From NCBI GenBank assembly GCA_001777575.1, contig MFEL01000008.1:42634-106633 (forward strand): a stretch of DNA of 64,000 nt. Direction: 5' to 3'. The notes beneath the pieces are model-generated. The model did not search any database. It was not told where the DNA came from and worked only from the letters and a program-made list of their open reading frames with translations. The position numbers and the translations under genes are program-made. Shown in pieces: positions 106 to 52,474 of this stretch. The DNA comes from Candidatus Doudnabacteria bacterium RIFCSPHIGHO2_01_FULL_46_24. GTDB lineage: Bacteria; Patescibacteriota; Doudnabacteria; UBA920; O2-02-FULL-48-8. Position 1 is the stretch's first letter. Each line of letters opens with the position of its first letter.

Positions 106-1539
106 ATGCAATTATTCGCAATTCTAATCCTGGGAGCTATTCTCCGCCTTTATCACAACATTTCCGTTGCACTCTGGCATGATGAGGCTTTTTCCGCGCT
201 CTACATCCGCTATCCATGGGGAGAGATGTTGGGCAGAATCATTGCCGACGTTCACCCTCCACTCTATTACTTCATTCTGCGGTTCTGGTCGTACATTTTC
301 GGCCAATCCCTCCTCTCCCTGCGCGGACTTTCAATTTTATTCGGCATCGCCACTATTTGGATGGGCTTTGTGCTGTTCAAGCAAATTTTTAGCAACAAAA
401 AATGGGCTTTGCTAGCCGCATTGCTAATAGCCATCAACCCATTTCAAATACAATATGCCTTGGAGGCCCGCATGTATACTTTGGGCACTTTCTTGTCGCT
501 TGTCACTTGTTACTTGTTACTCAAAGCCCTCGAGAACGACCAGCGAAAATATTGGGTCTGGTACGGCATCACCGCTGCGCTCACGCTCTACACGCACTAT
601 TTCCTGTTTTTCACTGTTGCCGCGCAAGTTATATACATCATTTATGTCTGGTTCAAAAAAAGAATCAGTCTAAAAAATCCCCTGCTGTCCGGCATCATTG
701 TGGCCGCAATGTATGCACCGTGGCTGCCTTCATTTCTAGTCCAGAACCGACGGGTGTCAGAAGCGTATTGGATTCCAGAAATGGATCGCTGGGCGATTCC
801 GGGCACCGTTTGGAAAATGATATTTGGTGGGCAAAATGTTTCCCGCCCCCTTTTAATTTTGACAACTCTGGCATGTATTGCCTTGCTTATCTACTTTTGG
901 CGTAAAACAAAATCCGAAACCAAATTCCTGATTCTATTCTCCTTGCTCGTCCCCTTTCTGGGTTCTATCTTAATCTCGCTCAAAACCTCCATCTACCTTG
1001 ACCGTTATTTCGTGTTTGCGGGTTTGTTCTTGATTGCCGCTATCGCCGCAGCGTTAATGCAAGTTCCAAATTACAGCGTGCGCAGAATCCTGGCCGCGGT
1101 TTTGGTAATTTTAAGCCTTGCGATGTTTTTCAAAAATTGGAAGGAACTGAACATCAAAAACAAGCCGGGTATGGCTGCGGCAAGCCGGATCATAAATGAA
1201 CAGGCGACGAAAGACGACAAAATTTATGTCGGCTCAAGCTTCATTTTTTTCACATTCAGATACTACAATGAAACCGGAATTAAGCCCTTGCTTTATTCCT
1301 CCGGCTCCCTCGAAACAATTCCGCACTTCTCTGGCACGGCGCTTCTTACAAACGACGATTTAATTTTGGATTTCAAGCAAGCGGAAAAAAACGACCGAGT
1401 TTGGCTGCTCTGGACCACCGGCTTTGGCGCCAGCAAGCCCAATGTCCCGGGAAATTGGAGCATTGTCTCCGAGCATGAATTCCAGGACACCCCTGACTTC
1501 AAAGGTAAAATCGTGGTCACCGAGTACCACGTCAATTAA
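106..1539 (+). CDS. GT-C fold glycosyltransferase, ArnT/PMT (GT39/GT83)-like polytopic membrane protein
   Basis: Multiple predicted TM helices. N-terminal LRLYHNISVALWHDEAF...PPLYYFILRFW motif is typical of ArnT/PMT-family transferases. ATG at 106. Confidence 0.65.
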   Translation: MQLFAILILGAILRLYHNISVALWHDEAFSALYIRYPWGEMLGRIIADVHPPLYYFILRFWSYIFGQSLLSLRGLSILFGIATIWMGFVLFKQIFSNKKWALLAALLIAINPFQIQYALEARMYTLGTFLSLVTCYLLLKALENDQRKYWVWYGITAALTLYTHYFLFFTVAAQVIYIIYVWFKKRISLKNPLLSGIIVAAMYAPWLPSFLVQNRRVSEAYWIPEMDRWAIPGTVWKMIFGGQNVSRPLLILTTLACIALLIYFWRKTKSETKFLILFSLLVPFLGSILISLKTSIYLDRYFVFAGLFLIAAIAAALMQVPNYSVRRILAAVLVILSLAMFFKNWKELNIKNKPGMAAASRIINEQATKDDKIYVGSSFIFFTFRYYNETGIKPLLYSSGSLETIPHFSGTALLTNDDLILDFKQAEKNDRVWLLWTTGFGASKPNVPGNWSIVSEHEFQDTPDFKGKIVVTEYHVN

Positions 1540-3482: not shown

Positions 3483-4534
3483 ATAATCATGCTTTTGAGG
3501 TCTTTGGGGATTTTGCTATGAATCTTGGGCTGTTTAGCCACGGTTATCATATCTTCTATTCTAACACCAAATTTGCCCGGCAGATAAATTCCAGGCTCAA
3601 CAGTCACCACGGAATTGACTTTCAGGACATCCTCAGAAGCGGGTGAAAAGTTGGGTTGTTCGTGAATTTCCAAACCTACGCCATGGCCGGTATTGTGGGT
3701 GAAATATTTGCCAAAACCGGCTTGGGTGATAACTTTGCGCGCGGTTTGATCAACCAACGAAGCTTTGTTGCCTATCTGGACTTTCGCGATGGCCTTAAGT
3801 TGGGAGTGTAAAACTGTTTCGTAAACTTTGGCTTGAAAACCTGTTGGCCGGCCAAGAAACAGGGTTCGTGTGAAGTCTGAGTGGTAATTTCCGACTTTGA
3901 AGCCGAAATCCAAAAGCAAAAAATTATTTCTGCCGACTCTGGTCTTGCTGGGAAAATGATGCGGGCTGGCTGCGTTGGAACCAAAAGCTACTATGGGATC
4001 GAAAGCCAAGCCTTCTGCGTCCAACTCTGTCCCATATTTCAAAATCAGTCCTGCAATTTTTGCTTCGGTTAACTCATATTTATTTATATATGCGCGTATA
4101 TACTTTTTTATTTGCTCAAAAGTCTTATCAATAATTGCACTGCCTCGCTCAATCGCCTTAAGCTGTGCTTTGGTCTTTACTGCTCGCACGTTCTCGATGA
4201 CATTAGCAGTTGATTTCCAACTAACCCCTTTCCCAATTTTCTTGAGGCTGGCAAACTCCCGCAAACTGATCCGATCCTCAATCGCGATTTTTTTATACTT
4301 AGCAAGAACCAAGTCTTTGCTAAGTCTTTCTAATTTTCTCACCGGCATGCCTGACTCTTTTTTTGCGCGCAAAAAATACCTCCCGTCAACATACAAAACC
4401 GCCTCGCGCTTGCTTATTACTAAATACCCGGCTGACCCCGTAAATCCCGAAAGATACTGCCGATTGATTTTGGTCAACACCAAAAAAGCATCCAGTTTTT
4501 TTTCAACCAGATAATCATGGATTTGGTTTGTCAT
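3479..4534 (-). CDS. Xaa-Pro aminopeptidase / M24B family metallopeptidase
   Basis: C-terminal HNTGHGVGLEIHE and GVRIEDM motifs of the M24 pita-bread fold. Has the N-terminal creatinase-like domain. Confidence 0.8.
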   Translation of the reverse strand: MTNQIHDYLVEKKLDAFLVLTKINRQYLSGFTGSAGYLVISKREAVLYVDGRYFLRAKKESGMPVRKLERLSKDLVLAKYKKIAIEDRISLREFASLKKIGKGVSWKSTANVIENVRAVKTKAQLKAIERGSAIIDKTFEQIKKYIRAYINKYELTEAKIAGLILKYGTELDAEGLAFDPIVAFGSNAASPHHFPSKTRVGRNNFLLLDFGFKVGNYHSDFTRTLFLGRPTGFQAKVYETVLHSQLKAIAKVQIGNKASLVDQTARKVITQAGFGKYFTHNTGHGVGLEIHEQPNFSPASEDVLKVNSVVTVEPGIYLPGKFGVRIEDMITVAKQPKIHSKIPKDLKSMII

Positions 4535-5681
4535 CCCTTATTTGTAATTTAATGGATTTGGTTGAATCGAGAAGGGAGGATTCGAACGTGGAAATGTAAG
4601 AATTTCGTTGCTGATGCTTTTCTTGGGCCAATTTAAGCAGGGCAGTCACGACTTCTTCCAATTCCATGCCCGAAGCTTTCCAGAGGTGGTGGTAAAGCGT
4701 TCCCGGCATAGTATTGATCTCATTGGCAAAATACTGCTCAGTTTGCTTATTATACAAAAAATCAACGCGGGCGATGCCGCTGCAGCCGAATTTTTTAAAA
4801 ATTTCCACGGCCAGATTCCGGATTTCTGAAGTTGTTTTGTCATCCAGCCTGGCAGGAATAATGATGTTCTGCTGGGCATTGCCCAACTGTGCGCCGCCGT
4901 CTTTGAGATATTTCTCGTCATAGGAGAATAATTCACTTTCAAACACCGATTCTTGCAGCAGCGATGGGCTGGCGTCGTCATTGCCAAGCACAGCGCAGGT
5001 GACATCCATCAAATTTTCTACGGTTTCTTCCACCAAAAAACGCTCGCCGTAGTGTGCGGCAACCTCAATCGCTTCCTCCAACTCCTTGGGATTTTTTGCT
5101 TTGGCAATTCCGATGGACGAGCCAAGCTTGGCTGGTTTGACAAACAACGGCCACCTAAACTTGCTTGCCTCGTTCATTATTGCACTCTTGTTTTTTTGCC
5201 ACTCTCGGGTGGAGTAAAACAAAAATTTGGCCGTTGGTATGCCAAGTTTCTCATAAAGCTGCTTGGTCAGAATCTTGTCCATGGTCACCGCCGAAGAAAC
5301 CACGTCACAGCCGACGTAAGGCAGGTTAAAAATTTCAAACAAGCCTTGGATTGTGCCGTCTTCGCCGTTCATGCCGTGAAAAGCCGGAAAAGCCAGCTCG
5401 ATTTCGTATCGTTTTTTTAGCAATCCTACCGACGCAAATACCATCTTGCCGTTGCTTGACTGCAAATCCAAAACAAACTTGCTGCGTTTCGGGAGAGGGA
5501 ATTGCTGAAAAAATTTCAGGCTCCCCAGTTCTTCGCCGACATTCCAATCTCCGTCTTTGTCCAAATAAACCGGAGTCACTTTGTGCCCCAGCTTCCTAAG
5601 CGTGGAAATTATGAGCTGCCCAGTAATGATTGAGATATCATGTTCCGGGCTGCGGCTCCCAAAAAATACCCCGATATTCAT
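4515..5681 (-). CDS. ddl: D-alanine--D-alanine ligase
   Basis: MNIGVFFGSRSPEHDISIITG N-terminus and ATP-grasp motifs. Adjacent to murF. Confidence 0.85.
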   Translation of the reverse strand: MNIGVFFGSRSPEHDISIITGQLIISTLRKLGHKVTPVYLDKDGDWNVGEELGSLKFFQQFPLPKRSKFVLDLQSSNGKMVFASVGLLKKRYEIELAFPAFHGMNGEDGTIQGLFEIFNLPYVGCDVVSSAVTMDKILTKQLYEKLGIPTAKFLFYSTREWQKNKSAIMNEASKFRWPLFVKPAKLGSSIGIAKAKNPKELEEAIEVAAHYGERFLVEETVENLMDVTCAVLGNDDASPSLLQESVFESELFSYDEKYLKDGGAQLGNAQQNIIIPARLDDKTTSEIRNLAVEIFKKFGCSGIARVDFLYNKQTEQYFANEINTMPGTLYHHLWKASGMELEEVVTALLKLAQEKHQQRNSYISTFESSLLDSTKSIKLQIRDDKPNP

Positions 5682-5787
5682 AAGTGTGATGCGAATTTAC
5701 GAATTTCATGCGAATGCTGCGAATATGCAAATCTTGGCGTTAGTCCATTCGCATATTTGTAGATTCGCATACATTCGCAGATTCGTA
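5682..5787 (-). repeat. Intergenic repeat family 1, copy A (gcgaat/ttgtagattcgcat words)
   Basis: Shares architecture and about 70% identity with 57898-58020 and 58393-58508. Fills the whole ddl-murF spacer. Confidence 0.7.
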
Positions 5788-7128
5788 TCATGTATAATTC
5801 TCCGGCCAATCGTTTTGAAACAAAATGACGTCTCCCGGCTTTACGATGCTCTTAATTGCATTGTGCGCTAGATGGGCTGATCCGAACCATTTGATGTTTT
5901 CGGATTTGAAGCCTTCCTGCAACAAACCCTGTTCAATAAATGGCGTAGCCGAATTTTTAATCAATATGACCACATCCGCCGCATGCGCCAATTGCTTGCC
6001 GATTTCTTTGTGCACCGCTTCGGTTCGGCTGCCCATCTCCACCAAACCAGGTGTGACATAAATTTTTCGCTTATCCTGAAAACCTGCCAAAACTTTTATT
6101 GCCTCTGCCGCCCCATCCGGATTACCATTGTAACTGTCATCAATTACCACCACCCCATTCGAGTTGGGCAGAATTTGAAGGCGATGCGGAATCTGCTTAA
6201 TTTTGCCAATACCGTCACGAATTTCCAACTCGCTTAAACCCAATTCTTTAGCAATTATAACACAGGCGTTGACAACACCCCAAGCGTAACTGCCCAGAAG
6301 CGGCATTTTCACATTTGGAAGCATCTGCAATTCTTTGGAATACCAGAAAACTGGACGCTCGCCAAGATATTTTTGATAGTTTTGCTTGATCAACTCACTG
6401 TCAGAATTCAAAACCACCAACGCCTGCGACTTGGAATTGACGACGATTTCAAACTTAGCCGCAATGGTGTTCTTAATCCCACCAAACAGCTCCAGGTGCG
6501 CTTCATTGATTCCGGTCAGCAACACAATGTCCGGCTGGGCAATAGCGCAAAGCTGAAAAATATCTCCCCTTTTATATGCCCCCATCTCAACGACAAAGAG
6601 CTCGATGTCACCATCAAGCTTATCTAAAATCAGTCGCGAGATTCCCAGCGGAGTATTGATATTTTCCGGCGTGGTTAGGACTTTGAAACGTTGGGATAAA
6701 ACGGCAGACAGGCTTTCCTTCATCGTGGTTTTGCCGAAACTGCCAGTAATGCCGATGATCTTAAGTTTTGGCAGTGTCCGCATTTTTGTCCTAGCCTGAG
6801 CAACTATATAATGCTTAATGGCAAAATCCAGGGGAAAGAGAATGAGCACGGATAAACTTAAAAATATGGGAGCCAACAGGTTTGCCCAAATCAGCCACAG
6901 GAACAGGAAAGCCACAACAAACCAGGGGCCGGTAAATAGGGCTTCAAAATAAGCAACAGTTGCCGCAAATAAAATTGATAATGTCAAAATCGCCAAGGCT
7001 TTGGGCGTCCAGACTATTTTTTTTCGAGGCGCTTGTTTGACCTTAAACACGCCCTTCCAGTAGCGGAGCAGGCTATAATTATTCAGTTGTAAAAAATACA
7101 ATTGGTGCAAGATTGGCCAGCGCGTCAT
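5788..7128 (-). CDS. murF: Mur ligase, MurF-like (UDP-MurNAc-tripeptide--D-Ala-D-Ala ligase), with an atypical N-terminal membrane region
   Basis: GITGSFGKTT P-loop at about residue 128. Central and C-terminal Mur ligase domains are present. The first ~100 aa are hydrophobic TM segments instead of the usual MurF N-domain. Sits next to ddl. Confidence 0.75.
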   Translation of the reverse strand: MTRWPILHQLYFLQLNNYSLLRYWKGVFKVKQAPRKKIVWTPKALAILTLSILFAATVAYFEALFTGPWFVVAFLFLWLIWANLLAPIFLSLSVLILFPLDFAIKHYIVAQARTKMRTLPKLKIIGITGSFGKTTMKESLSAVLSQRFKVLTTPENINTPLGISRLILDKLDGDIELFVVEMGAYKRGDIFQLCAIAQPDIVLLTGINEAHLELFGGIKNTIAAKFEIVVNSKSQALVVLNSDSELIKQNYQKYLGERPVFWYSKELQMLPNVKMPLLGSYAWGVVNACVIIAKELGLSELEIRDGIGKIKQIPHRLQILPNSNGVVVIDDSYNGNPDGAAEAIKVLAGFQDKRKIYVTPGLVEMGSRTEAVHKEIGKQLAHAADVVILIKNSATPFIEQGLLQEGFKSENIKWFGSAHLAHNAIKSIVKPGDVILFQNDWPENYT

Positions 7129-7901: not shown

Positions 7902-8658
7902 ACCATTTTTTTGCCAATTTGGAATAACCCGGGTTTAATTTCGTCACTTCCAAGATTATTTTTCCGCTTTTGCCAAGCTGGCTTTGAATTTCCGGATGCC
8001 GTTTGAGGTAACTTTCAAGCTTTCCAGACAGCAAATCTTCCTGCGCGATTATCTTAACATTTTTGGGCAAACCAGCGCGAATTTGCTTTCGAATCAGCCC
8101 GTAATGGGTGCAGCCCAGAATCAGGGCCTGGATGCGATTGGCAATAAGCGGTCTGAGGTAAATTTTTAACGGCTCAACCGTGCGGTTGAGGCGTTGAGCT
8201 TCGATTAGGTCCACCAGCGCGGGAGTAGCAACGGCAAATAGTTTAACGTCGGGATCAATATTCTCTAATTCGCGGCGGTATGCGCCAGAGGCCACGGTCT
8301 GGCGCGTGCCTATGAGCCCCACCCTACGGATGTTTCCGATAGTTTCCACGGTCGGCCGGATGATTCCCAAAATTTTCCTGCCCTTAAATCGCGAATGAGG
8401 TAAATAATCTTGCTGTAACTTTCGCAGCGCTTCTGACGAGACGGTATTGCAAGCAATGACCACCAGCGCGCAATCCTGCTTGAACATGTGCTCAACGGTC
8501 CTCACCGCCAATTTATAAATCTGAGCTTGGGACTTATTGCCATACGGCAAATTTTTGGTATCACCCAGATATAGATAATCGTATTGGGGCAGTTGGCGGG
8601 CAAGCTTCCTCAAAATCATCAACCCGCCCAGACCCGAGTCAAAAATTCCAATCTTCAT
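7861..8658 (-). CDS. murI: Glutamate racemase
   Basis: MKIGIFDSGLGGL and ACNTVS motifs. Confidence 0.85.
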   Translation of the reverse strand: MKIGIFDSGLGGLMILRKLARQLPQYDYLYLGDTKNLPYGNKSQAQIYKLAVRTVEHMFKQDCALVVIACNTVSSEALRKLQQDYLPHSRFKGRKILGIIRPTVETIGNIRRVGLIGTRQTVASGAYRRELENIDPDVKLFAVATPALVDLIEAQRLNRTVEPLKIYLRPLIANRIQALILGCTHYGLIRKQIRAGLPKNVKIIAQEDLLSGKLESYLKRHPEIQSQLGKSGKIILEVTKLNPGYSKLAKKWFGKHVHLSASNNR

Positions 8659-9959
8659 TACTGAATCACGTCAAATCCGGTAAATTCCTGCAAAGCTTTG
8701 GGGACGAGGATGGAGCCGTCAGCCTGCTGGTAATTTTCCATTATGGCGATGGCGGCGCGCATGGTGATGGCTGTGGCGTCATTGGTATGGAGCAGTTCCG
8801 TGGCACCGTCAGGCTTGCGGATCTTGATATTCAACCGGCGCGCTTGATAATCCGTCATCATGTCAGCCGTATGGGTTTCGCGGTAAAGTGCTTGTCCGGG
8901 AAGCCAGCAATTCAAATCCACTCCCCGGGCATTGGGATTACCAATGTCAGCAGTGCATTTCAGCAGCTTTTGGTATGGAATTTCCAAAACCTGCAGCAGA
9001 TACTCCTCAATCGCTACGAAAAACTGGTGCTCCTTGAATGAATTCTCAGCGGTGACAAAAGACTCCATCTCTACTTTGTCGAATTGGTGCAAGCGGATCA
9101 TACCCTTGACGTCTTTGCCGTAACTGCCGGCCTCGCGCCTAAAGCAGGTGGAAATACCGACATAGCGCAGGGGCAAATTTTTCTGGTCCAAAGCTTCGTC
9201 CGCATGCATGGAAACCAGCGTGTGTTCGGCGCTGCCGATAAGATACAAATCATCGTCCGGCAGATAATAACGCTCATTTTTATCCGCATCAGACAAACGC
9301 GCGGTTTTGCGGTAAATGTCAGACTTGATCATCACTGGCGGAATGATGGGAATGAACGGCTTGGCCGGATAGCCCTTTTCAACCGTGTCCGCAATTTTTT
9401 TCAAGGTCTGCTCGCTGGTCAACGTTCTAAGAACAAACTGGATCAAGGCCAGTTCTAAAATCGCCATGCCTCCCTTCCAATATCCGAACCTGCTGCCAGC
9501 CACTTTGGAGCCGCGCTTCATATCGACGACATCCAGCGCCTCTCCCAGCTCAAGATGGTCTTTGGGCTTAAACTTGAATTTCTTCGGTTTGCCCCACTCC
9601 GCCACGATTTGATTCTCAGTCTCATCCGCTCCCACCGGCACGTCCTTCCAAGGAATGTTGGGAATTTCGTACATAGCCAAGAGCCACCGGTCCTCCACTT
9701 CCTTAAGCTCCAGTTCCAGCTTGGAAAGCTTGTCTTTGATTTTCCTGCTTTCGTCGACCAGGCTGTCGTCCTTGCCTTTCTTCAGGTTTTTGGTGATTTC
9801 GTTGCGGCGGCTTCGAAGCGCCTCAGTCTCGATGATCAACTTCCGCCGCGTGTCGTCCAGGCTTAAAACTTCATCCAGGGCTTCAAGATTGGTTCCCTTG
9901 TCCTTGATCGCCTTGCGAACAACCTCTTGATTTTCCCTAATAAATTTTATGTCCAGCAT
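8658..9959 (-). CDS. serS: Seryl-tRNA synthetase
   Basis: N-terminal coiled-coil arm (MLDIKFIRENQE...) and class II core motifs. Confidence 0.9.
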   Translation of the reverse strand: MLDIKFIRENQEVVRKAIKDKGTNLEALDEVLSLDDTRRKLIIETEALRSRRNEITKNLKKGKDDSLVDESRKIKDKLSKLELELKEVEDRWLLAMYEIPNIPWKDVPVGADETENQIVAEWGKPKKFKFKPKDHLELGEALDVVDMKRGSKVAGSRFGYWKGGMAILELALIQFVLRTLTSEQTLKKIADTVEKGYPAKPFIPIIPPVMIKSDIYRKTARLSDADKNERYYLPDDDLYLIGSAEHTLVSMHADEALDQKNLPLRYVGISTCFRREAGSYGKDVKGMIRLHQFDKVEMESFVTAENSFKEHQFFVAIEEYLLQVLEIPYQKLLKCTADIGNPNARGVDLNCWLPGQALYRETHTADMMTDYQARRLNIKIRKPDGATELLHTNDATAITMRAAIAIMENYQQADGSILVPKALQEFTGFDVIQ

Positions 9960-9983
9960 AATTTACTGTTTCCTGATTACTGT

Positions 9984-10586
9984 TTACTGTTTGCTAATTT
10001 CCTTAAAAATATCGGTTAGTTTTTCCAAGGCGTGCTTGCGGTGGTCCAAAATTTTCTCTTCTTCCTCGTCGATTTCGCACCAGTATTTTTTGTAATTGGG
10101 CAGAAATGTAACGGAGCGGTACGGGTAGCGCGGAATGATTTTCTCGGATGGCTTGTCAGCGATAACCCCGGCAATCTCGCCGTGGGAAGTAAAAATCCCA
10201 AACGGGGTGGCAAGCGCGATCACTATGCTGAATTTACAAGTCCTTCTTTCAGCGGGAACACCTTGCATCCGCCTCATAACTTCCGCAATGATTTCCTGAT
10301 CCTTCATTTCATGCCCCAGCCAACGACGGCTTCGCACTCCCGGTTCGCCGCCTAAGGCATCGATTTCCATGCCGCCATCGTCAACCAAAGTCGGCAGGTG
10401 GGATTTTTCAAAATAATATTTAGCCTTATTGATCGCCTCTTCCTCAAACGTCTCGCTTTTTTCTTCCGGTTCCGGGATCTTCAAATCACCCGCCGAAACG
10501 ATTTCGAGCTTAAAATCTTTGAGGAATTTCTTGTAACTGTTCACCTTTGCCTGATTTCCGGTGCCAATAAGCAACTTTTTGGACAT
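9984..10586 (-). CDS. rdgB: Non-canonical purine NTP pyrophosphatase (Ham1/RdgB family)
   Basis: LLIGTGNQAKV...EIVS matches the ATGNxGK Ham1 signature. Confidence 0.65.
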   Translation of the reverse strand: MSKKLLIGTGNQAKVNSYKKFLKDFKLEIVSAGDLKIPEPEEKSETFEEEAINKAKYYFEKSHLPTLVDDGGMEIDALGGEPGVRSRRWLGHEMKDQEIIAEVMRRMQGVPAERRTCKFSIVIALATPFGIFTSHGEIAGVIADKPSEKIIPRYPYRSVTFLPNYKKYWCEIDEEEEKILDHRKHALEKLTDIFKEISKQ

Positions 10587-10618
10587 TTTAGAAATTAGAT
10601 ATTAGAAATTAGAAATTT

Positions 10619-11173
10619 TTACAATCCTATTTCCTCTGCCCTTTCCTTCATGGCATTCAAGCTTATTTCCACCAGTTCCGGCAATTCCATATCGATATAT
10701 TCTTTGCAAAGCAAAATGATTTCCCGGTTCACGCCGGCGGCAAAGCTCTTTTGCCTGAATTTTCGCATCACCGAATCAGTGGTCACGCTGGCTAATTTCT
10801 TATCCGGCTGGATGAGTGCGGCGGCGGTAATCAAACCTGATAATTCTTCCACGCAATACAAGGTTTTCTCAAGCAGGGTTTCGGGCTTGATGTTGTGCGC
10901 CCAGTTGTGGACGTAAATCGCTTTGACAATTTCCGGCTTCAAATCCGTCTTTTGCAGAATCTCTCTGCTGACCTTGGTGTGGCTTTTGAAATCATCCTTG
11001 GTTTTTTCCCAATCCAGGTCATGCAGCGTGCCGGCCAGTTCCCAATCGTCTTCGTTTTGTCCGAACTTTTTCGCCAAGGCTTTCATGATAAATCCAACCA
11101 CCAAGTTGTGCCTGATTAAATTCTGGTTTTTTATGTGCTCATCCAAAAGAGCCAAGGCCTGGTCTCTAGTCAT
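10619..11173 (-). CDS. HD-domain phosphohydrolase
   Basis: H...HDLDW metal-binding motifs. 184 aa. Confidence 0.6.
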   Translation of the reverse strand: MTRDQALALLDEHIKNQNLIRHNLVVGFIMKALAKKFGQNEDDWELAGTLHDLDWEKTKDDFKSHTKVSREILQKTDLKPEIVKAIYVHNWAHNIKPETLLEKTLYCVEELSGLITAAALIQPDKKLASVTTDSVMRKFRQKSFAAGVNREIILLCKEYIDMELPELVEISLNAMKERAEEIGL

Positions 11174-12620
11174 CCTGCCTCATGGGTGGGAAAATTACGG
11201 TTTCGCGCATTGACTTGTTCATCAGCACCGCAAACACGCGCTCGCTCATGCCAAAGCCCACGGCCGGCGGCATGCCGTATTCCAGCGCTTCCACGTAATC
11301 CTCGTCCATCATTTGCGCTTCTTTGTCCCCCGCTTCGCGCAATTTCATCTGTTCCTCAAACCTCATTTTCTGGTACTGCGGGTCATTGACTTCTGACCAG
11401 GCATTGCCCAGCTCCGTGCCCGCGGCCAAAATCTGAAACCGCAGGACTTTTTTGGGATTTTTGGGATCGACTTTTGCCAGCGGTGAAATTTCCGCCGGGT
11501 GTCCGACCAGGAAACATGGCTGAATCAATTTCGGCCGAACGAGCTTTTTGTAAATTACGTCAATCAACCGGCCAACCGAACCTTCCACATCAGCACCCAA
11601 TTCTTTTGCCTTCTTACGAAGATCACCTTCGTTAGCCTTATTCAAATCCAGGCCTGTGGCATCCTTAAACGCCTTAAAGTAATCAACCTTGGGCCATTTG
11701 CTACCCCAATCAATCTTATGTCCTTCGTATTCGATTTCCATGCTGCCACAAACCTTTTTGACAATTTCTTTGAACAGTTTTTCCGAAAGCTTCATACCAT
11801 CTTTGTCATCGGCATAAGCCCAGTAAAATTCCATATCGTCGTATTCCTGCAAATGCTCGCGGTCAATGCCTTCGTTGCGGAACAGTCGGCCGATTTCAAA
11901 CACTTTTTCAAAACCGCCGACCAAAAGTCGCTTGAGTGGCAATTCTAAAGAAATCCGCAAATAAAAATCGCGGTCCAAAGCTTCGTGATGAGTAATAAAG
12001 GGCGTGGCATCAGCGCCGCCAGGAACATCTTCCAAAACCGGCGTCCAAACCTCCAGGAAGCCTTGCTTAATCATGAAATTGCGGATTACTTGCCAAAAGA
12101 CGGCCTTTTTGCGAAACAACTCTTTCGTTTCCGGGTTGGCGATAAGATCAAGATATCTTTTTCTGAGCCTAACTTCTGCGTCCTTAAGCCCAAAGTAATT
12201 CTGCGGAATAGGACGCAAGCTTTTAGCTAATAGCTGATAGCTATCAGCTTCCAAGGTTTTTTCCCCGGTTTTCGAAAGGGCCAAGGTTCCAGTAAACTCG
12301 GCAAAATCGCCGATGTCAAAAAGCTCTGAGAATTGCCGAAATTTCTCACCCAGTACGTCCTCGCGCAGCAAAAACTGGATTGAGCCCGATTCATCCTCAA
12401 GATTGCCGAAAGTCAGCTTGCCATGTGTGCGAATTGAGCGAATCCTGCCAGCCAGTGTTACGTGTTTCGTGTTACGTGTTACGTGATCAAAAAGCTGCAA
12501 AGCCTCACCCACAGTATGGTCCCGCTTCGACTCAACCGGATAAGGATTAATCCCGGCCTTTTTCAAAGCCTCAAGTTTTTGTATCCTAACTTTCCTTAAT
12601 TCTTCGATTTTTTCAGACAT
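11166..12620 (-). CDS. lysS: Lysyl-tRNA synthetase (class II)
   Basis: Aligns along the full length with bacterial LysS (anticodon-binding OB N-domain plus class II core; FRNEGI motif). Confidence 0.9.
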   Translation of the reverse strand: MSEKIEELRKVRIQKLEALKKAGINPYPVESKRDHTVGEALQLFDHVTRNTKHVTLAGRIRSIRTHGKLTFGNLEDESGSIQFLLREDVLGEKFRQFSELFDIGDFAEFTGTLALSKTGEKTLEADSYQLLAKSLRPIPQNYFGLKDAEVRLRKRYLDLIANPETKELFRKKAVFWQVIRNFMIKQGFLEVWTPVLEDVPGGADATPFITHHEALDRDFYLRISLELPLKRLLVGGFEKVFEIGRLFRNEGIDREHLQEYDDMEFYWAYADDKDGMKLSEKLFKEIVKKVCGSMEIEYEGHKIDWGSKWPKVDYFKAFKDATGLDLNKANEGDLRKKAKELGADVEGSVGRLIDVIYKKLVRPKLIQPCFLVGHPAEISPLAKVDPKNPKKVLRFQILAAGTELGNAWSEVNDPQYQKMRFEEQMKLREAGDKEAQMMDEDYVEALEYGMPPAVGFGMSERVFAVLMNKSMRETVIFPPMRQDD

Positions 12621-12721
12621 GTTACGTGTGACGTGATTCGTGTTACGTGGCCTTAATTATACCATAAATCAGTTAAACACCTCAACCGGGTTGAGGTGTT
12701 TAACGGGCTTATGTTAGTCAA

Positions 12722-13036
12722 CTATTTGAGGGTATATTTCACACTGCGTCCGGTGCGGCCGATCTGCACCAGGCGGCCCTGATGCTCCAAATCGTCCAGA
12801 TAGCGCTCGGCGGTGGCGTGCGATACGCCAAGCAAGTCAGCGGCCTCATCATTGGTTATGTCATCGTGATACGAAAGGTGGTGCAAAATTTTGTCCAGAT
12901 TCTCCTGCCGCTCCCGCATCTGCTCGGGGTTTAGGTACTTAAACGCCGCCCTCTTGCCCAATTTCCGCCCAATAAAATAGCTGGCTATGACAGCCAGAGC
13001 AATAATCGTGGCTATCCACATAACAACAACATACAC
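12722..13036 (-). CDS. Hypothetical membrane-anchored protein with a C-terminal winged-helix/HTH-like segment
   Basis: N-terminal TM helix followed by LLGVSHATAERYLDDLEHQGRL (HTH-like). Followed by a hairpin at 12690-12716. Confidence 0.4.
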   Translation of the reverse strand: MYVVVMWIATIIALAVIASYFIGRKLGKRAAFKYLNPEQMRERQENLDKILHHLSYHDDITNDEAADLLGVSHATAERYLDDLEHQGRLVQIGRTGRSVKYTLK

Positions 13037-25453: not shown

Positions 25454-25521
25454 AGTTATAAATTATTTTATTACGAATTCCGGATTAACGAATTGTCAAT
25501 CCGCAATCCGTTAATTCGCAA
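25454..25521 (-). repeat. Intergenic repeat family 2, copy 1 (cggattaacgaattg / ccgttaattcg words)
   Basis: Related to 55728-55804 and 56960-57034. Contains nested inverted repeats. Confidence 0.65.
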
Positions 25522-26775
25522 TTAATCAATTCTCTTGATATCCGCGCCCAAGCTTTGCAGTCTTTCTTCTAATCGCTCATACCCCCGATCAATATGCTCC
25601 ACTCCGCCTATCTCGGATTGTCCAGTGGCCACCAGAGCCGCAATTATCATGGTCATACCCATCCGAATGTCAAGGCCTATTATTTTAGCACCATGCAGGG
25701 GAGTAACACCAGCGATCTTTACCTGATGGGAGTCTAACACTTCCGCGTTGGCACCCATTTTTTTAAGCTGTTGGACATAGCTGAGACGGTTCTCGTAAAG
25801 CCATTCGAAAATATAAGATTCACCTTCGGCCTGCGTGGCCAGCACGGCCATGGGCGGCATGTCGTCTGAAGCCAACTTAGGATACAACCCGCTTTGGATT
25901 TTAGAGCCAGTATAAGGCTTTTGGGACGGCGACACATGGATATAATCTTTTCCGGTTTCAAAATTTACATGCATCTGCCGCAGTTTCAGCAAAAAATCTT
26001 CCATAAATTCCGGATTCAATCGGGAAATGACCACGTCGCTTTTGGTAGCTGCGGCCAAGGTAATAAAACCGGCAGCCTCGTTGGAATCCGGAATAAGTTC
26101 GGCGGTGGCGCCATGAAGCTCAAGCGCGCCTTCCACGACCAAAGTCGGCGACCCGATGCCGGAAATCTTGGCCCCCATTCTGTTCAAAAATTCGCACAAA
26201 GCCTGGACATGCGGCTCCATGGCCGCCAGTTTGATTATGGTTGTCCCCGAGGCCAAAACCGCGGCCATTAACGCGTTTTCCGTGGCTGTGACCGATGATT
26301 CAATTAAAACGATTTTATTGCCTGTTAATTGCTCGCAGTTAAGCTCAATGCCGTTTCCCTGCCTCACCTCGGCTCCTAAATCCTCAAAAGCGCGCAAATG
26401 GGCATCCACGGGCCGTTTGCCGATCAAATCGCCGCCTGGCAAAATCATGGCGGCTTTTTTCTTCCGGGCCAACAAAGGCCCCAAAAGCAATATGGATCCG
26501 CGCAATTTGGCAGCCAAATCCGGATTAACTTCGGTCTTGGAAAGTTTTGCGGCCCTGATGCTGAGGCGGTGATCTCCCAAACTGACTTCTGCGCCCAAAT
26601 CCGAAAGCAATGACGCCATGGTTTCCACATCGCGGATTTTGGGCACATTGGTCAATATGCACTCGTCCGCCGTCAAAAGGCAGGCCGCCATCATGGGCAA
26701 AACCGCGTTCTTTGACCCCGCGACTGTTATTTCCCCGTTTAGCGGTTTATTGCCGTTTATAATAAATTTAGCCAT
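25522..26775 (-). CDS. murA: UDP-N-acetylglucosamine 1-carboxyvinyltransferase
   Basis: Start reassigned to MAKFIINGNKPLNGEITVAGSKNA (ATG at 26775). The 88-aa N-terminal extension in the ORF track has no similarity. Confidence 0.9.
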   Translation of the reverse strand: MAKFIINGNKPLNGEITVAGSKNAVLPMMAACLLTADECILTNVPKIRDVETMASLLSDLGAEVSLGDHRLSIRAAKLSKTEVNPDLAAKLRGSILLLGPLLARKKKAAMILPGGDLIGKRPVDAHLRAFEDLGAEVRQGNGIELNCEQLTGNKIVLIESSVTATENALMAAVLASGTTIIKLAAMEPHVQALCEFLNRMGAKISGIGSPTLVVEGALELHGATAELIPDSNEAAGFITLAAATKSDVVISRLNPEFMEDFLLKLRQMHVNFETGKDYIHVSPSQKPYTGSKIQSGLYPKLASDDMPPMAVLATQAEGESYIFEWLYENRLSYVQQLKKMGANAEVLDSHQVKIAGVTPLHGAKIIGLDIRMGMTMIIAALVATGQSEIGGVEHIDRGYERLEERLQSLGADIKRID

Positions 26776-38592: not shown

Positions 38593-39408
38593 TTACCTGA
38601 CGAACATAAAAGTGGAAATAATTTGGTCAAAAACTCTAGCATACTCATCCTGCTGCTCTTGCGTCAAATCGCCTCGGATAGTCATAGATATTAGCATAAC
38701 TCCGGTTGTTTTCTCAATAAATAAATATTCCATAGCCTTGTTTGCGGCGAATCCAGAAACCGCCTCGATCTCTCCGCGGCATCGCAGCGCCTTCGCTCCG
38801 CTGATTGTCAAGGACTTGGGATTGCTGCAATAAGACAGCGAGTATTGCGTCATATTTGTCCCCACGTCTACAGGTCCAAACGGAATCTTTAGCCAGGCGT
38901 AATAATCTTTCAATTCTCCGGCATACTTTAGTGTATCGAATCCGGATTCTTTTGTGCTTAGAACAAGATATTTATCTTTACTGCCGTATTCATCAGTCCT
39001 GTCCACCCAATCGCTGGGGTATTCGAATCTGAACCTGAAATCATAAAACGGGCTAAGATAGGTCTGCCAGTTCGCAGCTTCGCCTGCTCCGACCGAAGCG
39101 TCGGAGTCAAGCTGATTTGTGTCTTCAAACCAAGCGGCCGGGCTCCATCCTGGAGGCAAACAGGAATTATAAAACTTTTTAGTCTCGCCATCATTATTTA
39201 CTGCCAAAATTTCTTTTCTTGAACAATCGTTCCCAAACGTCCAACCATATTGCCAATAAAAGACGCCAGCGACAATGCCGGCAAAAACCAGCCCCAAAAA
39301 CACGTAGCCTAAAACCATGTGGCGGCTAAGCCAATTCTTATTTGGCGGCAAGGTCGGCACTGGTTGGTTGCTTATATTTTTCTGTGACACTCCCTGTTGA
39401 TTTTCCAT
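38593..39408 (-). CDS. Hypothetical secreted/membrane-anchored protein (271 aa)
   Basis: Single N-terminal TM helix. Promoter-operator copy 1 lies directly upstream. Confidence 0.5.
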   Translation of the reverse strand: MENQQGVSQKNISNQPVPTLPPNKNWLSRHMVLGYVFLGLVFAGIVAGVFYWQYGWTFGNDCSRKEILAVNNDGETKKFYNSCLPPGWSPAAWFEDTNQLDSDASVGAGEAANWQTYLSPFYDFRFRFEYPSDWVDRTDEYGSKDKYLVLSTKESGFDTLKYAGELKDYYAWLKIPFGPVDVGTNMTQYSLSYCSNPKSLTISGAKALRCRGEIEAVSGFAANKAMEYLFIEKTTGVMLISMTIRGDLTQEQQDEYARVFDQIISTFMFVR

Positions 39409-39420
39409 ACTTCCGTTCTA

Positions 39421-39444
39421 CATTCATACACGACTGTATGAATG
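39421..39444 (-). promoter_or_regulatory. Operator copy 1: palindrome cattcataca-cgac-tgtatgaatg just downstream of a TATAAT -10 box
   Basis: A 32-bp segment (39420-39451) is identical to 39956-39987. The minus strand reads TATAAT-ACATTCATACAGTCGTGTATGAATG. Confidence 0.6.
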
Positions 39445-39453
39445 TATTATAAA

Positions 39454-39945
39454 TTATAGCTGTAAATCTCTGCTTGCTGAACGCTGCTTAAGTTTCTTTG
39501 TGATAAGACGACTAACTTCCGGAATGCCCTCGGTGACCAAATCCGCCAAAAACGTTTCAGCCGGCATTTTTCTCCGAACTCGCCTTTCCAGGATCGTCTG
39601 TCTCTCCTCGCGTTTTCTCTGGAATTTATTTTCCAAATCAACCAATTTCTGATGAACCTTCTTTAATCCTTCGCCCCGGGTCATCAGCGTATTATTAACG
39701 GTTGTGATTGTTCTGGCGGTAACTTTCAGGGCATCCATGATCTCTTCGTATGTCTGACCATCGATGAGGCGCCTAGCGATTTCTAACCGCTTAGCAAACA
39801 TCTTATATTCTGTGTGTGTAAATAAATCCTTAAACAGCAAACGAACATCCTCCTTGGAATCCATTAAAGTAAAGGCTGACCATAAATTGTTCACATAATG
39901 GCCGAAGTGCTGCGGGTCTAAATGTAATCTTGATAGTTTTGTCAT
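39454..39945 (-). CDS. TrpR-like (YerC/YecD family) helix-turn-helix regulator
   Basis: ARRLIDGQTYEEIMDALKVTARTITTVNN matches the Trp-repressor-like YerC/YecD HTH. Confidence 0.6.
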   Translation of the reverse strand: MTKLSRLHLDPQHFGHYVNNLWSAFTLMDSKEDVRLLFKDLFTHTEYKMFAKRLEIARRLIDGQTYEEIMDALKVTARTITTVNNTLMTRGEGLKKVHQKLVDLENKFQRKREERQTILERRVRRKMPAETFLADLVTEGIPEVSRLITKKLKQRSASRDLQL

Positions 39946-39956
39946 TTTTTATTTCA

Positions 39957-39980
39957 CATTCATACACGACTGTATGAATG
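39957..39980 (-). promoter_or_regulatory. Operator copy 2 (identical palindrome) overlapping the promoter of the TrpR-like gene
   Basis: The minus strand reads gcgcTATAAT-acattcatacagtcgtgtatgaatg-tgaaataaaaaATG. Confidence 0.6.
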
Positions 39981-39990
39981 TATTATAGCG

Positions 39991-47180: not shown

Positions 47181-47629
47181 TATAAATTGATGTCAATTTT
47201 GCGCACCTTGTCGACGCGGCGTTTGAAGCGTTCTTCGTTAGCAAAGGGTGTGGTCAGGAAGGTGTGGATGATTTTATTGGCTTCCGAAAGAGAAACATAA
47301 TCTGCGGGCAGGCAAAGAACATTAGCGTCGTCGTCATTGCGCGCGGCAAATGCAGATTTTTCATTCCAACAAAGCGCAGCGCGCACTCCTTTGGCTTTAT
47401 TGGCCACAATGCATTCACCCTGTCCTGAGCGGCAAGCTAAAATCCCAAACGAGCCGATCTGGCTGCCAACTTTCACCGCCACCGGCCAGGCAAAATCCGG
47501 ATAATCGTCTTTGGAATCGAACTTATGCGCACCCAAATCCTCAAACTCAAAATTCCATTCCGAAAGCCAGCGCTTAATCTCTCCCTTAAGCTTATATCCC
47601 CCGTGGTCAGCCCCGATGTATGCTTTCAC
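47180..47629 (-). CDS. rpiB: Ribose-5-phosphate isomerase B
   Basis: RpiB/LacAB family motifs (IGADHGGY, C-rich active site). Confidence 0.85.
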   Translation of the reverse strand: MKAYIGADHGGYKLKGEIKRWLSEWNFEFEDLGAHKFDSKDDYPDFAWPVAVKVGSQIGSFGILACRSGQGECIVANKAKGVRAALCWNEKSAFAARNDDDANVLCLPADYVSLSEANKIIHTFLTTPFANEERFKRRVDKVRKIDINL

Positions 47630-48380
47630 GTTCGAACTCCTTGATTATTTCCCAAAAATTATTTGGATCCAAAGACGCAGCTCCGACCAAGGCACCGTCA
47701 ATTTCCGAATACTGAGCATATTCCCTCGCATTGTGTTTATTTACTGTGCCGCCATAAAGCACTCGGCAATTTGGTCCCGCAAACTTATGAATATACATGA
47801 TAAGCTCACGCGCATGCTCGCCGTCTGCCGGCTTGGAATGAAGACTGGTGGATATGGCCCAGGTCGGTTCGTAAACAAACACAATTTTATGCAGTTCGTT
47901 CTTTTCAATCCCCTTCATTGTAGCGCGGAATTGCTTGGCTACAATTTTTTTCATGTCCGTTTTTTTGGCTTTGGCCACAGCACCCAGGCATACAATGGGT
48001 ATGATCTTGTGCCTCAACGCCGACCTGACCTTGACATTGACCATTTGGTCTGTCTCGCCCAAACCCAATCTCCGTTCCGAATGGCCCAAAATCGCAAAGT
48101 TTACATTGAACGGCTTGAGCATGGTCGGCGAAGATTCACCTGTAAAAGCTCCGGCTTCTTCCCAGTGCATATTCTGTGCTCCCAATTTTACGCTGTGCAC
48201 ATAATGCGAAAATGCCGGCAAGTACAGAGCCGGAGGGCAAATTACGGCTTCGCTTTTGTTCATCAATGGCGCGCGGTGCTCCAAGATCATCAAAATCCTG
48301 CGCGCTTCACTCAGCGTTTGGGGATTCATTTTCCAGTTTGCGACTATAAGCTTTTTTTTATACATAAATTTAATTATCAA
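47607..48380 (-). CDS. tpiA: Triosephosphate isomerase
   Basis: LIVANWKMN N-terminus. Catalytic His/Glu. Confidence 0.9.
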   Translation of the reverse strand: MIIKFMYKKKLIVANWKMNPQTLSEARRILMILEHRAPLMNKSEAVICPPALYLPAFSHYVHSVKLGAQNMHWEEAGAFTGESSPTMLKPFNVNFAILGHSERRLGLGETDQMVNVKVRSALRHKIIPIVCLGAVAKAKKTDMKKIVAKQFRATMKGIEKNELHKIVFVYEPTWAISTSLHSKPADGEHARELIMYIHKFAGPNCRVLYGGTVNKHNAREYAQYSEIDGALVGAASLDPNNFWEIIKEFERESIHRG

Positions 48381-48448
48381 TTTTCAGTTTTCAATTTACA
48401 ATTAATTTTCAAAATTCAATTTTCAAATCTTGATAATTGAAAATTATG
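48381..48448 (-). repeat. Tandem 'ttttcaa/caatttt' word spacer upstream of tpiA
   Basis: caattttcagttttcaatttacaattaattttcaaaattcaattttcaaatc. Confidence 0.5.
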
Positions 48449-51130: not shown

Positions 51131-51895
51131 TTATACCATGTTTGTTAGCGTTTCACAACCGTTTTCCGTTACTATTACCGTATGTTCAAAATGCGCTGAG
51201 CGGCTCCCGTCAGCGGTTTTGACAGTCCAGCCGTCATCGGTAAATATCACTTTCCATGCCCCGGCGTTAATCATCGGCTCTATAGCCAGAACCATTCCCG
51301 AAACAAGTTTAGTTCCTGTGCCGCTTTTTCCATAACAAGGAACCTCAGGGTCCTCATGCACAGATTTTCCAACCCCGTGGCCGACCAACTCTCGAACAAC
51401 GTTGAATTTATTTTGCCGAGCTACTTCTTCGATCGTTTGCCCGATGTCACCGGTAAAATCGCCGGCCCTCACTTTGAGCGCTGTTTTAAGAGCGATCCGG
51501 GCGGTTTCAATAAGCCTTAATGATTCAATATCGACTTTCCCCACGGCAACGGTGACCGCCGCATCGGTGTAGAATCCCTGGTACACAACCCCCAAATCCA
51601 AACCAACAATGTCGCCTTGCCGCAAAATTTTATCCTTGCTGGGAATCCCATGCACGACCTCGTCATTTACCGACACGCATAAGCTTGCGGGAAAGGGTTT
51701 TTGGCCTTTCATGGAACTGTAATTCTTAAAAGCGGAGCAAGCGCCACTGCTTCTGATTTCCTGTTCCGCGATCTGGTCCAGCTCAAGAGCGGAAACCCCA
51801 GGCCTGACGTGCGCTTGCGCAATCGCCAAAGTTTTTGCAAGTATCCGGCCGGATTGCCTAAGCAGGTCAAGCTCTTTTGGATCGCTGGTAATCAT
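51131..51895 (-). CDS. map: Methionine aminopeptidase type I
   Basis: Full-length M24A similarity. Confidence 0.9.
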   Translation of the reverse strand: MITSDPKELDLLRQSGRILAKTLAIAQAHVRPGVSALELDQIAEQEIRSSGACSAFKNYSSMKGQKPFPASLCVSVNDEVVHGIPSKDKILRQGDIVGLDLGVVYQGFYTDAAVTVAVGKVDIESLRLIETARIALKTALKVRAGDFTGDIGQTIEEVARQNKFNVVRELVGHGVGKSVHEDPEVPCYGKSGTGTKLVSGMVLAIEPMINAGAWKVIFTDDGWTVKTADGSRSAHFEHTVIVTENGCETLTNMV

Positions 51896-52469
51896 GGATG
51901 GCTTTCTGGATATCTTGAGCGACTTTTTTAATACGCTGGTCGCCTTTAATAAATCGCAGTTTATTGATTGACTGAAAATATTTAATGCCCTTGTTGGTAT
52001 CGGGATTCTGCCATTGCATCCGCTTCTTTATATATGCGAGATTTGAATCGTCTTCGCGCTCATGTTTGGATAAGCGTTTTTTGAGCCGTCTGTACACTTC
52101 TCTTTCCGGCAATTTGATGAACAAAACAAAAAAATCCCGACGCTTCTCACTCAAAAGTTTTTTCAGCAACCAAGCCTCCGGCTTGAGTCTGGGATTGCCG
52201 ACAAAAATCAAATCACGATTTGAACTTACTGTACTGATTTGATTCTTTAGGAACTTTTTCATCAGAGGCACTGGCGTATATTGACCTCTGTTCATGGTTC
52301 TTCTCAGCCACCGGCCCTCGGCATTATTTTTTTTTGCCATTGCGCGCCAATGCTTGCCGGATTCAACCGGTTTGAGCGAATAACGCTCTTGCAAAATTCG
52401 GGCTTGGGTGTCTTTCCCAGACCCCGGGCCTCCAAGCAGCACTAAATCAAATCCGAGCCGTTCTTTCAT
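51867..52469 (-). CDS. Divergent adenylate-kinase-like NMP kinase (second paralog)
   Basis: GGPGSGKDTQ P-loop. Basic C-terminal extension. Confidence 0.55.
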   Translation of the reverse strand: MKERLGFDLVLLGGPGSGKDTQARILQERYSLKPVESGKHWRAMAKKNNAEGRWLRRTMNRGQYTPVPLMKKFLKNQISTVSSNRDLIFVGNPRLKPEAWLLKKLLSEKRRDFFVLFIKLPEREVYRRLKKRLSKHEREDDSNLAYIKKRMQWQNPDTNKGIKYFQSINKLRFIKGDQRIKKVAQDIQKAIHDYQRSKRA

Positions 52470-52474
52470 TCTGT

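Follow-up and report, generated by a model that had tools for sequence, protein, structure and literature searches.

Heptamer arrays in the leader and coding sequence of lysS in a Candidatus Doudnabacteria genome: apparently one instance of a broader feature of CPR genomes

The closest described system to the repeats considered here is that of the TAACTGA heptamers of Beggiatoaceae and Cyanobacteria, direct repeats that precede start codons in marine Beggiatoaceae as well as some Cyanobacteria and Bacteroidetes (MacGregor 2015, PMC4679880). Our subject is a repeat in the leader and inside the coding sequence (CDS) of lysS, the gene of a class II lysyl-tRNA synthetase (LysRS), in a stretch of 64,000 nucleotides (64 kb; "the window" below means this whole stretch) from Candidatus Doudnabacteria bacterium RIFCSPHIGHO2_01_FULL_46_24 (assembly GCA_001777575.1, contig MFEL01000008.1, positions 42,634 to 106,633), an ultra-small bacterium of the Candidate Phyla Radiation (CPR, or Patescibacteria). 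The likeness to the TAACTGA repeats lies in the tandem 7-nucleotide (nt) units, present in 2-6 copies a few nt upstream of start codons; in the interval between repeat and start, which lacks a Shine-Dalgarno (SD) sequence and has no predicted structure; in the genes preceded, which are essential and include ribosomal protein genes; and in the occasional copies within open reading frames (ORFs), which take protein-permissive positions. The function of the TAACTGA repeats is a proposal (PMC4679880). Heptamer repeats also lie near start codons or promoters in Nostoc PCC 7120 (bioRxiv 10.1101/2022.06.06.494920), and heptanucleotides are, in the account of Mrazek et al. 2007 given in PMC4679880, the most abundant class of longer simple sequence repeats (SSRs) in many genomes, where they are ascribed to polymerase slippage. 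The Nostoc heptamers resemble the present arrays in being contiguous and in lying near start codons or overlapping them, and an influence on translation or transcription has been suggested, but they consist of a few fixed units (TTTTGAA, for example) at many loci, and in-frame arrays in conserved enzymes are unreported. The same holds for the heptanucleotide STRR repeats of heterocystous cyanobacteria, reportedly described by Mazel et al. in 1990.

The lysS gene, its three arrays and the elements upstream of it are listed here in window coordinates, with r1 and r2 denoting the two arrays inside the gene (TRF, Tandem Repeats Finder; lag-7 identity is identity at a distance of 7 nt).

11166..12620, minus strand: lysS, class II lysyl-tRNA synthetase of 484 amino acids (aa), E=1e-125 to PDB 3a74
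12621..12649, minus strand: leader heptamer array, CACGTAA CACGAAT CACGTCA CACGTAA C, touching the ATG; TRF period 7, 4.3 copies
12457..12485, minus strand: r1, internal array, CACGTAA CACGTAA CACGAAA CACGTAA C, translated as HVTRNTKHVT; lag-7 identity 19/21
12215..12249, minus strand: r2, second internal array, AGCTGAT AGCTATC AGCTATT AGCTAAA AGCTTGC; detected by TRF, lag-7 identity 15/21
12656..12664, minus strand: extended -10 promoter element of lysS, TGgTATAAT (TTGAGG-18-TATAAT, TG present)
12672..12704, minus strand: terminator-like hairpin of the gene upstream of lysS, a 15-pair stem with a T-rich tail after it

Read on the coding strand, the leader is C-CACGTAACACGAATCACGTCACACGTAAC-ATG, with the ATG at 12620..12618, and the internal copy r1 is CACGTAACACGTAACACGAAACACGTAAC, beginning at +136 and encoding D45-HVTRNTKHVT-L. 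The two 29-mers are identical at 25/29 positions and have the same orientation, and both amount to about four tandem units of the heptamer CACGTAA (TRF period 7; 4.3 and 4.4 copies). The motif CACGTAAC occurs five times in the window, each time within the leader array or r1, where 0.69 occurrences are expected by chance; the 11-mer CACGTAACACG, with at most one mismatch, occurs seven times against 0.41 expected, and seven was reached in 0/100 shuffles. Because these counts exceed both expectation and shuffles, the repeat is genuine and non-random. No reverse-complement copy of the CACGTAA-type motif is present within the window. The preliminary description of this DNA, made from the sequence alone, had reported the repeat in the two places and the motif nowhere else in the window, and both statements hold, the second for CACGTAAC with all 5/5 occurrences in these places; the account was incomplete in that it overlooked the tandem 7-nt structure, r2 and the other period-7 arrays of the window. 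It had further placed the peptide HVTRNTKHVT in the anticodon-binding domain. The encoded peptide is as stated, but in the alignment to Geobacillus LysRS (PDB 3a74) it falls in the variable linker just ahead of strand beta-1 of the OB-fold, not in the core. In the same alignment r2, which encodes (E)ADSYQLLAKSL, i.e. ..EADSYQLLAKSL.., lies on the final strand of the OB-fold and on the segment that joins it to the catalytic domain, with the conserved motif SYxLLxKxLRP.

Since the terminator-like hairpin lies upstream, lysS is predicted to be the first gene of its transcription unit; with the TGnTATAAT promoter in the same upstream region, the 5' untranslated region would be some 28-30 nt long and would consist almost wholly of the leader array. 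TGnTATAAT or TATAAT is found upstream of the lysS ATG in most of the Doudnabacteria orthologs examined.

The lysS arrays have company throughout the window. A simple lag-identity scan for arrays of at least 4 units (~30 nt), in which periods 5-12 were compared and shuffles served as control, gave 8 period-7 arrays, 0 arrays at periods 5, 6 and 8-12, and ~0 in the shuffles. TRF reports many further period-7 arrays of similar size and differing units, five of all these arrays being 4.3-4.4 units long. Seven end 0-3 nt from an ATG, namely those of serS, rdgB, lysS, tpiA, adk, rpsE and rplP (Pfam annotation); besides that of lysS these are the following.

9960..9992, minus strand: ACAGTAA x4, touching the ATG of serS (8658..9959); TRF and lag scan
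10587..10617, minus strand: TTTCTAA x4, touching the ATG of Ham1/rdgB (9984..10586); TRF and lag scan
48369..48426, minus strand: eight units of TTGAAAA type, ending 2 nt ahead of the tpiA ATG (47607..48366); TRF
52470..52498, minus strand: TCAGTAA x3.3, touching the ATG of an adenylate kinase gene (51867..52469); TRF and lag scan
55354..55395, minus strand: TTCTAAT/TACTAAT x5, touching the rpsE ATG (54865..55353); TRF and lag scan
59343..59377, minus strand: CTTTAAT x4.7, touching the rplP ATG (58929..59342); TRF and lag scan

The first unit of the serS array provides the stop codon of rdgB. Weaker heptamer arrays stand ahead of two more genes, rplV and that of a transketolase subunit, and iPGM has another ~40 nt upstream. 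Inside coding sequence (~60 kb), three arrays reach a lag-7 identity of at least 70%, where codon shuffles give 0.23; two are in lysS and one is in a PMT_2 glycosyltransferase gene. In the latter (106..1539) the array, the sole in-CDS one of the window outside lysS, is in frame, runs CTTGTCG CTTGTCA CTTGTTA CTTGTTA at 488..524 on the plus strand and encodes the hydrophobic TFLSLVTCYLLL.

The comparison was extended to loci of relatives (labelled L001 etc.). In 554 kb of related loci there are 19 period-7 arrays against at most 6 for every other period, and in a wider set of 980 kb ~89, of which 46/89 adjoin a start codon by automatic call; the few non-CPR loci in the wider set (Thermotogota, Firmicutes) have no period-7 arrays. 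Leader arrays with unrelated units precede lysS in the distant CPR lineages L016, L024, L037, L138 and L139. Judged from these sequences, period-7 arrays are a class spread throughout the genomes of this Candidatus Doudnabacteria and of other CPR bacteria, and the literature searched contained no account of heptamer arrays in CPR/Patescibacteria.

Set beside the TAACTGA repeats, the lysS arrays have period-7 tandem copies, and the leader copy touches its ATG without a match to a generic anti-SD sequence; the internal copies are not start-proximal. The main difference is in the unit. The TAACTGA system uses one unit genome-wide, with related heptamers rarely repeated, whereas here each array has its private unit (CACGTAA, ACAGTAA, TTTCTAA, CTTTAAT, TTGAAAA and others). 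Forward in-ORF copies, deemed impossible there on account of three-frame stops, occur here inside essential genes with the in-frame stop mutated. The TAACTGA work contains no description of concerted unit change between orthologs or of unit sharing by neighbouring arrays, both of which are found here, and the host phylum, CPR/Patescibacteria, is new.

As to why the leader and r1 should match, units are generally shared between neighbouring arrays. Array pairs at most 500 nt apart were compared with pairs from different loci, in direct or inverted orientation, by Fisher's test. An identical consensus unit is shared by 4/33 of the pairs within 500 nt and by 36/4030 of the different-locus pairs (P=2.7e-4), and a unit within 1 mismatch by 11/33 and 338/4030, respectively (P=5.5e-5). 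Neighbouring inverted pairs form hairpins, and the direct pairs resemble the lysS pair. Gene conversion between leader and coding sequence, one of three explanations offered in the preliminary description, is thus the best supported of these, although the lysS pair is only one instance of a general sharing of units by neighbouring arrays. The match might otherwise have come about by independent convergence on a favoured unit of the type N4TAA, with no exchange of sequence. The repertoire of units is indeed restricted, because several unlinked arrays of the window share them (TTCTAAT in rdgB and rpsE, CAGTAA in serS and adk, CTTTAAT in rplP and tkt), and the ancestral lysS leader was already CAAGTAA/CAGTTAA-like, one or two changes from CACGTAA. 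Nevertheless, we regard convergence as quite improbable in view of the 13-fold enrichment of exact unit identity for arrays at most 500 nt apart, of the atypical, G+C-containing CACGTAA, found among the window arrays at these two sites only, and of unit position 3 of the leader, which is C in all four window units (4/4) and A, T and G in the three units of L004, a pattern that looks like homogenisation.

The closest LysRS genes are those of Candidatus Doudnabacteria, the best match having 79% aa identity among the genomes searched and 76% among the metagenomes, which is too remote for the events at leader and r1 to be put in order. Among the orthologs, a CACGTAA-like lysS leader is found in the window alone. 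The internal arrays have a wider distribution: in codon alignments, r1 and r2 arrays stand at exactly matching codons in several orthologs, with no indels and with different units.

r1, window: (CACGTAA)4-type, HVTRNTKHVT
r1, L004: CACGGAT CACGTAA CACGGAT CACGTGA
r1, L001: CAGATAT CAGACAG CAAAAAA CAGATAA, QISDSKKQIT
r1, L008: CAGTTAT CAGATAA CAGAAAA CAGATAA, QLSDNRKQIT
r1, L061: CAGGAAA TAGTAAG CAGTAAA CAGATAA
r2, window, L001, L002 and L008: AGCTATA-type unit
r2, L004: AACTACA/CACTACT-type unit
r2, L061 and L081: CACTACT-type unit

The r1 unit is thus CAGATAA x4 in L001, L008 and L061 and CACGTAA x4 in the window and L004; being common to these two, r1 of the CACG type would be older than the lineage of the window. 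The peptides are literal three-frame translations of the unit, and a unit whose TAA would fall in frame is always substituted, by TAA->AAA (Lys) at r1 and by TAA->TTA at r2. The differences between unit types recur at an exact 7-nt spacing whatever the codon phase (AGC/AAG/GCT vs AAC/AAA/ACT; TAT/TTA vs TAC/CTC), the coupled changes at r2 being Ser-to-Asn, synonymous and Ala-to-Thr. Randomisation of synonymous codons, which tests lag-7 identity beyond what the protein sequence imposes, gave for r1 19/21 in the window (P<3e-4), 17/21 in L008 (P=3e-4), 15/21 in L061 (P=0.003) and 17/21 in L004 (P=0.005), with a weaker 14/21 in L001 (P=0.02); for r2 it gave 15/21 in the window (P=7e-4) and 16-19/21 in L002, L004, L008, L061 and L081 (P<=0.001). 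The array-bearing orthologs span at least two clades, and many other Doudnabacteria lysS orthologs put to the same randomisation have no r1/r2 periodicity. The units of the in-frame lysS arrays have, on the evidence of the alignments, changed in concert between orthologs. The preliminary description had held that orthologs with the same peptide in other codons and no leader copy would make the pairing coincidental; the leader copy is indeed absent or degenerate in them, but the peptide is not the same, the unit having changed in concert with the 7-nt periodicity retained.

These alignments also bear on whether the duplication is an artefact of assembly or sequencing, in which part of a read was duplicated or joined wrongly, as had been considered at the outset. 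Nothing beyond the duplication itself speaks for this. At 29 nt, either array fits within one read; the ORF, which is unbroken, can be aligned with LysRS structures over its whole length without indels; and independent metagenome-assembled genomes (MAGs) from other studies have arrays at those codons. With the intact ORF and the independent assemblies, an artefact is hardly credible and is excluded from further consideration.

Three further observations concern the internal arrays. An internal translation start after r1 was tried as a candidate and set aside, the next in-frame codon, which is CTG in the window, GTG/TTA in L004, TTG in L001 and L061 and TTA in L008, not being a start codon in every case; the idea is retained only as part of the cis-signal reading given below. 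The r2 of the window folds as an 11-bp hairpin (z -3.9) because AGCT is palindromic; an RNA hairpin as a conserved r2 feature was rejected, as the CACTACT-type r2 of L004, L061 and L081 is unable to fold in this way, and r1 with its flanks does not fold significantly (z -1.8). Finally, a third array position exists inside lysS at ~+470, with GAATCCA/GAAACCA units (L011 2158..2187 = L094 721..750), in a different lineage related to Doudnabacteria.

The persistence of r1 and r2 raises the possibility that periodicity as such is selected, the arrays serving as binding platforms for a phased single-strand RNA-binding protein (a cold-shock protein with its ~7-nt site, or S1) and tuning the translation of lysS; the leader and in-CDS arrays would then act by standby binding, pausing at domain boundaries or autoregulation. 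The arrays are uniform in length (~30 nt) and sit strictly beside start codons, r1 and r2 lie at the two LysRS domain boundaries and keep significant lag-7 identity in at least 2 clades despite 20-35% protein divergence, an in-frame (AAGAATT)5 is likewise retained in the essential tsaD of other CPR lineages, and S1, Csp and CsrA have been put forward as binders of the analogous TAACTGA repeats (PMC4679880). On the other hand, no single sequence-specific binder fits, because the units differ among the arrays of one genome; the leader arrays seem dispensable, because close relatives mostly have none at the corresponding junctions; r1/r2 periodicity is missing from many Doudnabacteria lysS orthologs; and any binder would be a putative one. 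We consider such a binder unlikely. Selection for periodicity nevertheless stays a live rival, because the arrays form a narrow length class and because r1 and r2 have persisted although synonymous divergence is saturated.

Taken further, the heptamer periodicity itself could be a selected cis-signal in CPR bacteria, with ~30-nt arrays of any unit being read by a phased RNA-binding factor or by the ribosome; this we find quite doubtful. The arrays would then mark starts that lack an SD sequence and, in lysS and tsaD, would serve domain-boundary pausing or internal initiation; the nucleotide repeat would dictate the protein sequence, HVTRNTK, QITDNRK and SYKLLAK being three-frame translations of units; and in lysS the matching leader and internal arrays would evolve together as a pair.

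The leader arrays have a more recent look. At rdgB, stop and start codons overlap or are nearly adjacent in the orthologs, and the 31-nt TTTCTAA array is present in the window only, in none of the orthologs sampled. The serS start reads ..AGTAAATAAT-ATG in most orthologs where the window has (ACAGTAA)4; L002 has an independent (ATAGNAA)5 array at this junction, and L001, L003, L004, L005, L008 and L010 have none. For lysS, the distance from the -10 box (TATAAT) to the ATG is 21-23 nt in most orthologs, 28 in L004 and 35 in the window. The L004 leader, CAAGTAA TATGCAT CAGGAAT T, is homologous to that of the window, not homogenised and one unit shorter, and in all orthologs compared the leader array is absent or degenerate. 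From these comparisons the leader arrays at serS, rdgB and lysS are lineage-specific local expansions in steps of ~7 nt. The shift of lysS leader length in 7-nt steps between species is shared with the long SSRs and contingency loci of bacteria, which differ in that the present arrays are short (4-5 units), imperfect and located at housekeeping rather than surface or virulence genes; and the in-CDS copies of lysS, which keep their length, allow no on/off frameshift switch of the phase-variable kind.

A regulatory pair is difficult to reconcile with this distribution. The preliminary description had proposed a shared binding site for a regulator or small RNA (sRNA). Spelled out, the two copies would be paired operators of a DNA-binding repressor, or paired targets of an sRNA, with one site in the promoter or 5' untranslated region and one within the gene, as in gal OE/OI and lac O1/O2. 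A shared 8-mer at +1..+30 and +136..+164 and nowhere else in the 64 kb, and a winged helix-turn-helix (HTH) gene immediately upstream (12722..13036), agree with the proposal. However, the sequence is conserved in no ortholog leader; the repeats are direct, with a 7-bp period and no dyad symmetry; the complementary RNA is not encoded in the window; and the HTH gene, which has one homologue among 160 loci (L142), is not syntenic with lysS in relatives, the lysS leader of L142 being without an array. The conserved sites and cognate regulator of gal- and lac-type operator pairs are therefore not found here. Rfam has no family at gathering threshold in the 64 kb and only chance-level matches in the lysS leader, and neither this nor a leader of ~30 nt with a minimum free energy (MFE) of -5.1 kcal/mol resembles the tRNA-sensing leaders of the T-box or ThrRS type. 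The proposal is unsupported, and we consider an operator or sRNA pair very improbable.

What the leader arrays do have in common is weak folding. Folded over ~70 nt, they have MFE values between -3.8 and -6.5 kcal/mol and z values between -0.3 and +1.5, the lysS leader being at z +1.5; they are A+U-rich with a G content of 6%; and none pairs with the anti-SD at -4.5 kcal/mol or better, as computed with a generic anti-SD that may not be that of the host, compared with 13-23% of the other window genes. Since the period is 7 and most window units contain TAA, TAA falls in all three frames. A three-frame-stop device is nonetheless not treated here as a defining property: sense stops in all three frames occur in only 14/30 leader arrays, the excess of TAA over TTA is modest (72 vs 48 across the 30 arrays), and the lysS leader, which keeps two TAAs, has stops in one frame only.

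The explanation that we favour, with some but by no means full confidence, is that the arrays are heptamer microsatellites born by slippage and homogenised by local templated copying, so that the leader and r1 are no dedicated regulatory pair. Arrays would arise through replication slippage, and templated misalignment (template switching or short-tract gene conversion, leaving length unchanged) would keep each array uniform and neighbouring arrays alike. The lysS leader would ancestrally have been CAAGTAA-like, as in L004; one unit would have been gained in the lineage of the window, and the leader homogenised to the CACGTAA of the older r1 135 nt away, or both homogenised together. By analogy with the TAACTGA repeats, the leader arrays most probably act in SD-independent initiation, as leaders or spacers free of structure, and the internal arrays would be tolerated passengers at protein-permissive positions rather than a second regulatory site. 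Templated (quasi-repeat or quasipalindrome) mutagenesis by template switching is established in E. coli genetics. It accounts for simultaneous, length-neutral substitutions which make neighbouring direct or inverted repeats more alike, and it fits the lysS arrays (leader, r1 and r2) as well as inverted array pairs at other loci; unlike the systems compared above, it is a mechanism rather than a family of elements, and we know of no demonstration of it in CPR bacteria.

Several points weigh against slippage and templated copying as the full explanation. Slippage and conversion are deduced from sequence comparison, and the translational role of the leader arrays is carried over from the proposal for the TAACTGA repeats (PMC4679880). 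That the leaders have no SD sequence rests on the generic anti-SD, because the 16S 3' end of the organism lies outside the window. The r1 and r2 arrays persist at saturated synonymous divergence (67-80% aa identity), and the arrays form a narrow length class, with five of 4.3-4.4 units; both would be explained equally well by selection for a function of the RNA. Among the orthologs the length of the in-CDS arrays is constant, which is unusual for slippage-prone repeats. Moreover, pairwise LysRS identities are star-like in pattern (81.5% for the window and L001, the closest, and 76.5% for the window and L004), and the window shares its CACG-type r1 unit with L004, not with the closer L001; because of the star-like phylogeny and the unit common to L004, the direction and timing of the homogenisation of leader and r1 are uncertain. 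Even so, the interpretation of the lysS repeats as a regulatory pair is probably wrong.

Other repeat elements of the window and of the related loci are recorded here in their own right. Three hairpin elements of ~55-60 nt, which look alike by eye, lie on the minus strand at 25470..25522, 55745..55805 and 56980..57031; their arms are arrays of AACGGATT-type units and the complement AATCCGT, and each precedes an A/T-rich tract and then the ATG of mreB, rplR (L18) or an S14-like small ORF (MFE -19 to -23 kcal/mol, z -4.2 to -5.4; no match in Rfam). Long imperfect hairpins of TGCGAAT/ATTCGCA (and ATTAGCA) units, also on the minus strand, lie at 5690..5790, 57898..58025 and 58393..58470, just upstream of the genes 4515..5681, 57580..57897 and 58021..58392; the first is the most stable of those folded (-39.8 kcal/mol, z -6.5) and the second is weaker (z -2.3). 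A TATAAT box with a hairpin, CATTCATACAGTCGTGTATGAATG, is duplicated on the minus strand at ~39409..39460 and ~39946..39990, upstream of the consecutive genes 38593..39408 and 39454..39945. In several CPR lineages, tsaD contains an in-frame (AAGAATT)5 array encoding VEELRIKNEELRIVG (L097 4810..4852; also L019, L025, L102, L103, L112 and L113), in which the in-frame TAA is swapped for GAA or AAA, matching the stop-avoidance rule of lysS; the L097 gene has three more heptamer arrays, one of which lies 36 nt downstream of the (AAGAATT)5 array and is approximately its reverse complement.

Gene calls around some arrays deserve a remark. The minus strand carries 66/73 of the ORFs called in the window, and the 64 kb contain no tRNA genes. 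In the tpiA region the longest ORF, 47511..48440 on the plus strand (309 aa), has no Pfam match and is probably spurious; the tpiA ORF itself, 47607..48366 on the minus strand, has E=9e-68. Two neighbouring genes of the adenylate kinase family (51867..52469 and 52475..53113, minus strand) lie in the ribosomal protein/secY region, the TCAGTAA leader array of the downstream one overlapping the stop codon of the upstream one.

The lysS pair is an instance of something broader in CPR genomes that apparently has not been described. Should the pattern extend to the whole genome, the pre-start region of CPR/Patescibacteria would be built in a way not reported before, with a short home-made heptamer microsatellite in place of an SD site; these bacteria make up a large share of bacterial diversity, and their translation signals have barely been studied. 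In the in-frame arrays, a nucleotide-level process would override amino-acid choice in conserved parts of essential enzymes, and the joint shift of Ser/Asn, Ala/Thr and synonymous sites at 7-nt spacing would be a natural example of concerted evolution or templated mutagenesis in coding sequence. In CPR MAGs, heptamer arrays would have practical consequences for gene calling, for the prediction of start sites and for selection tests based on alignments.

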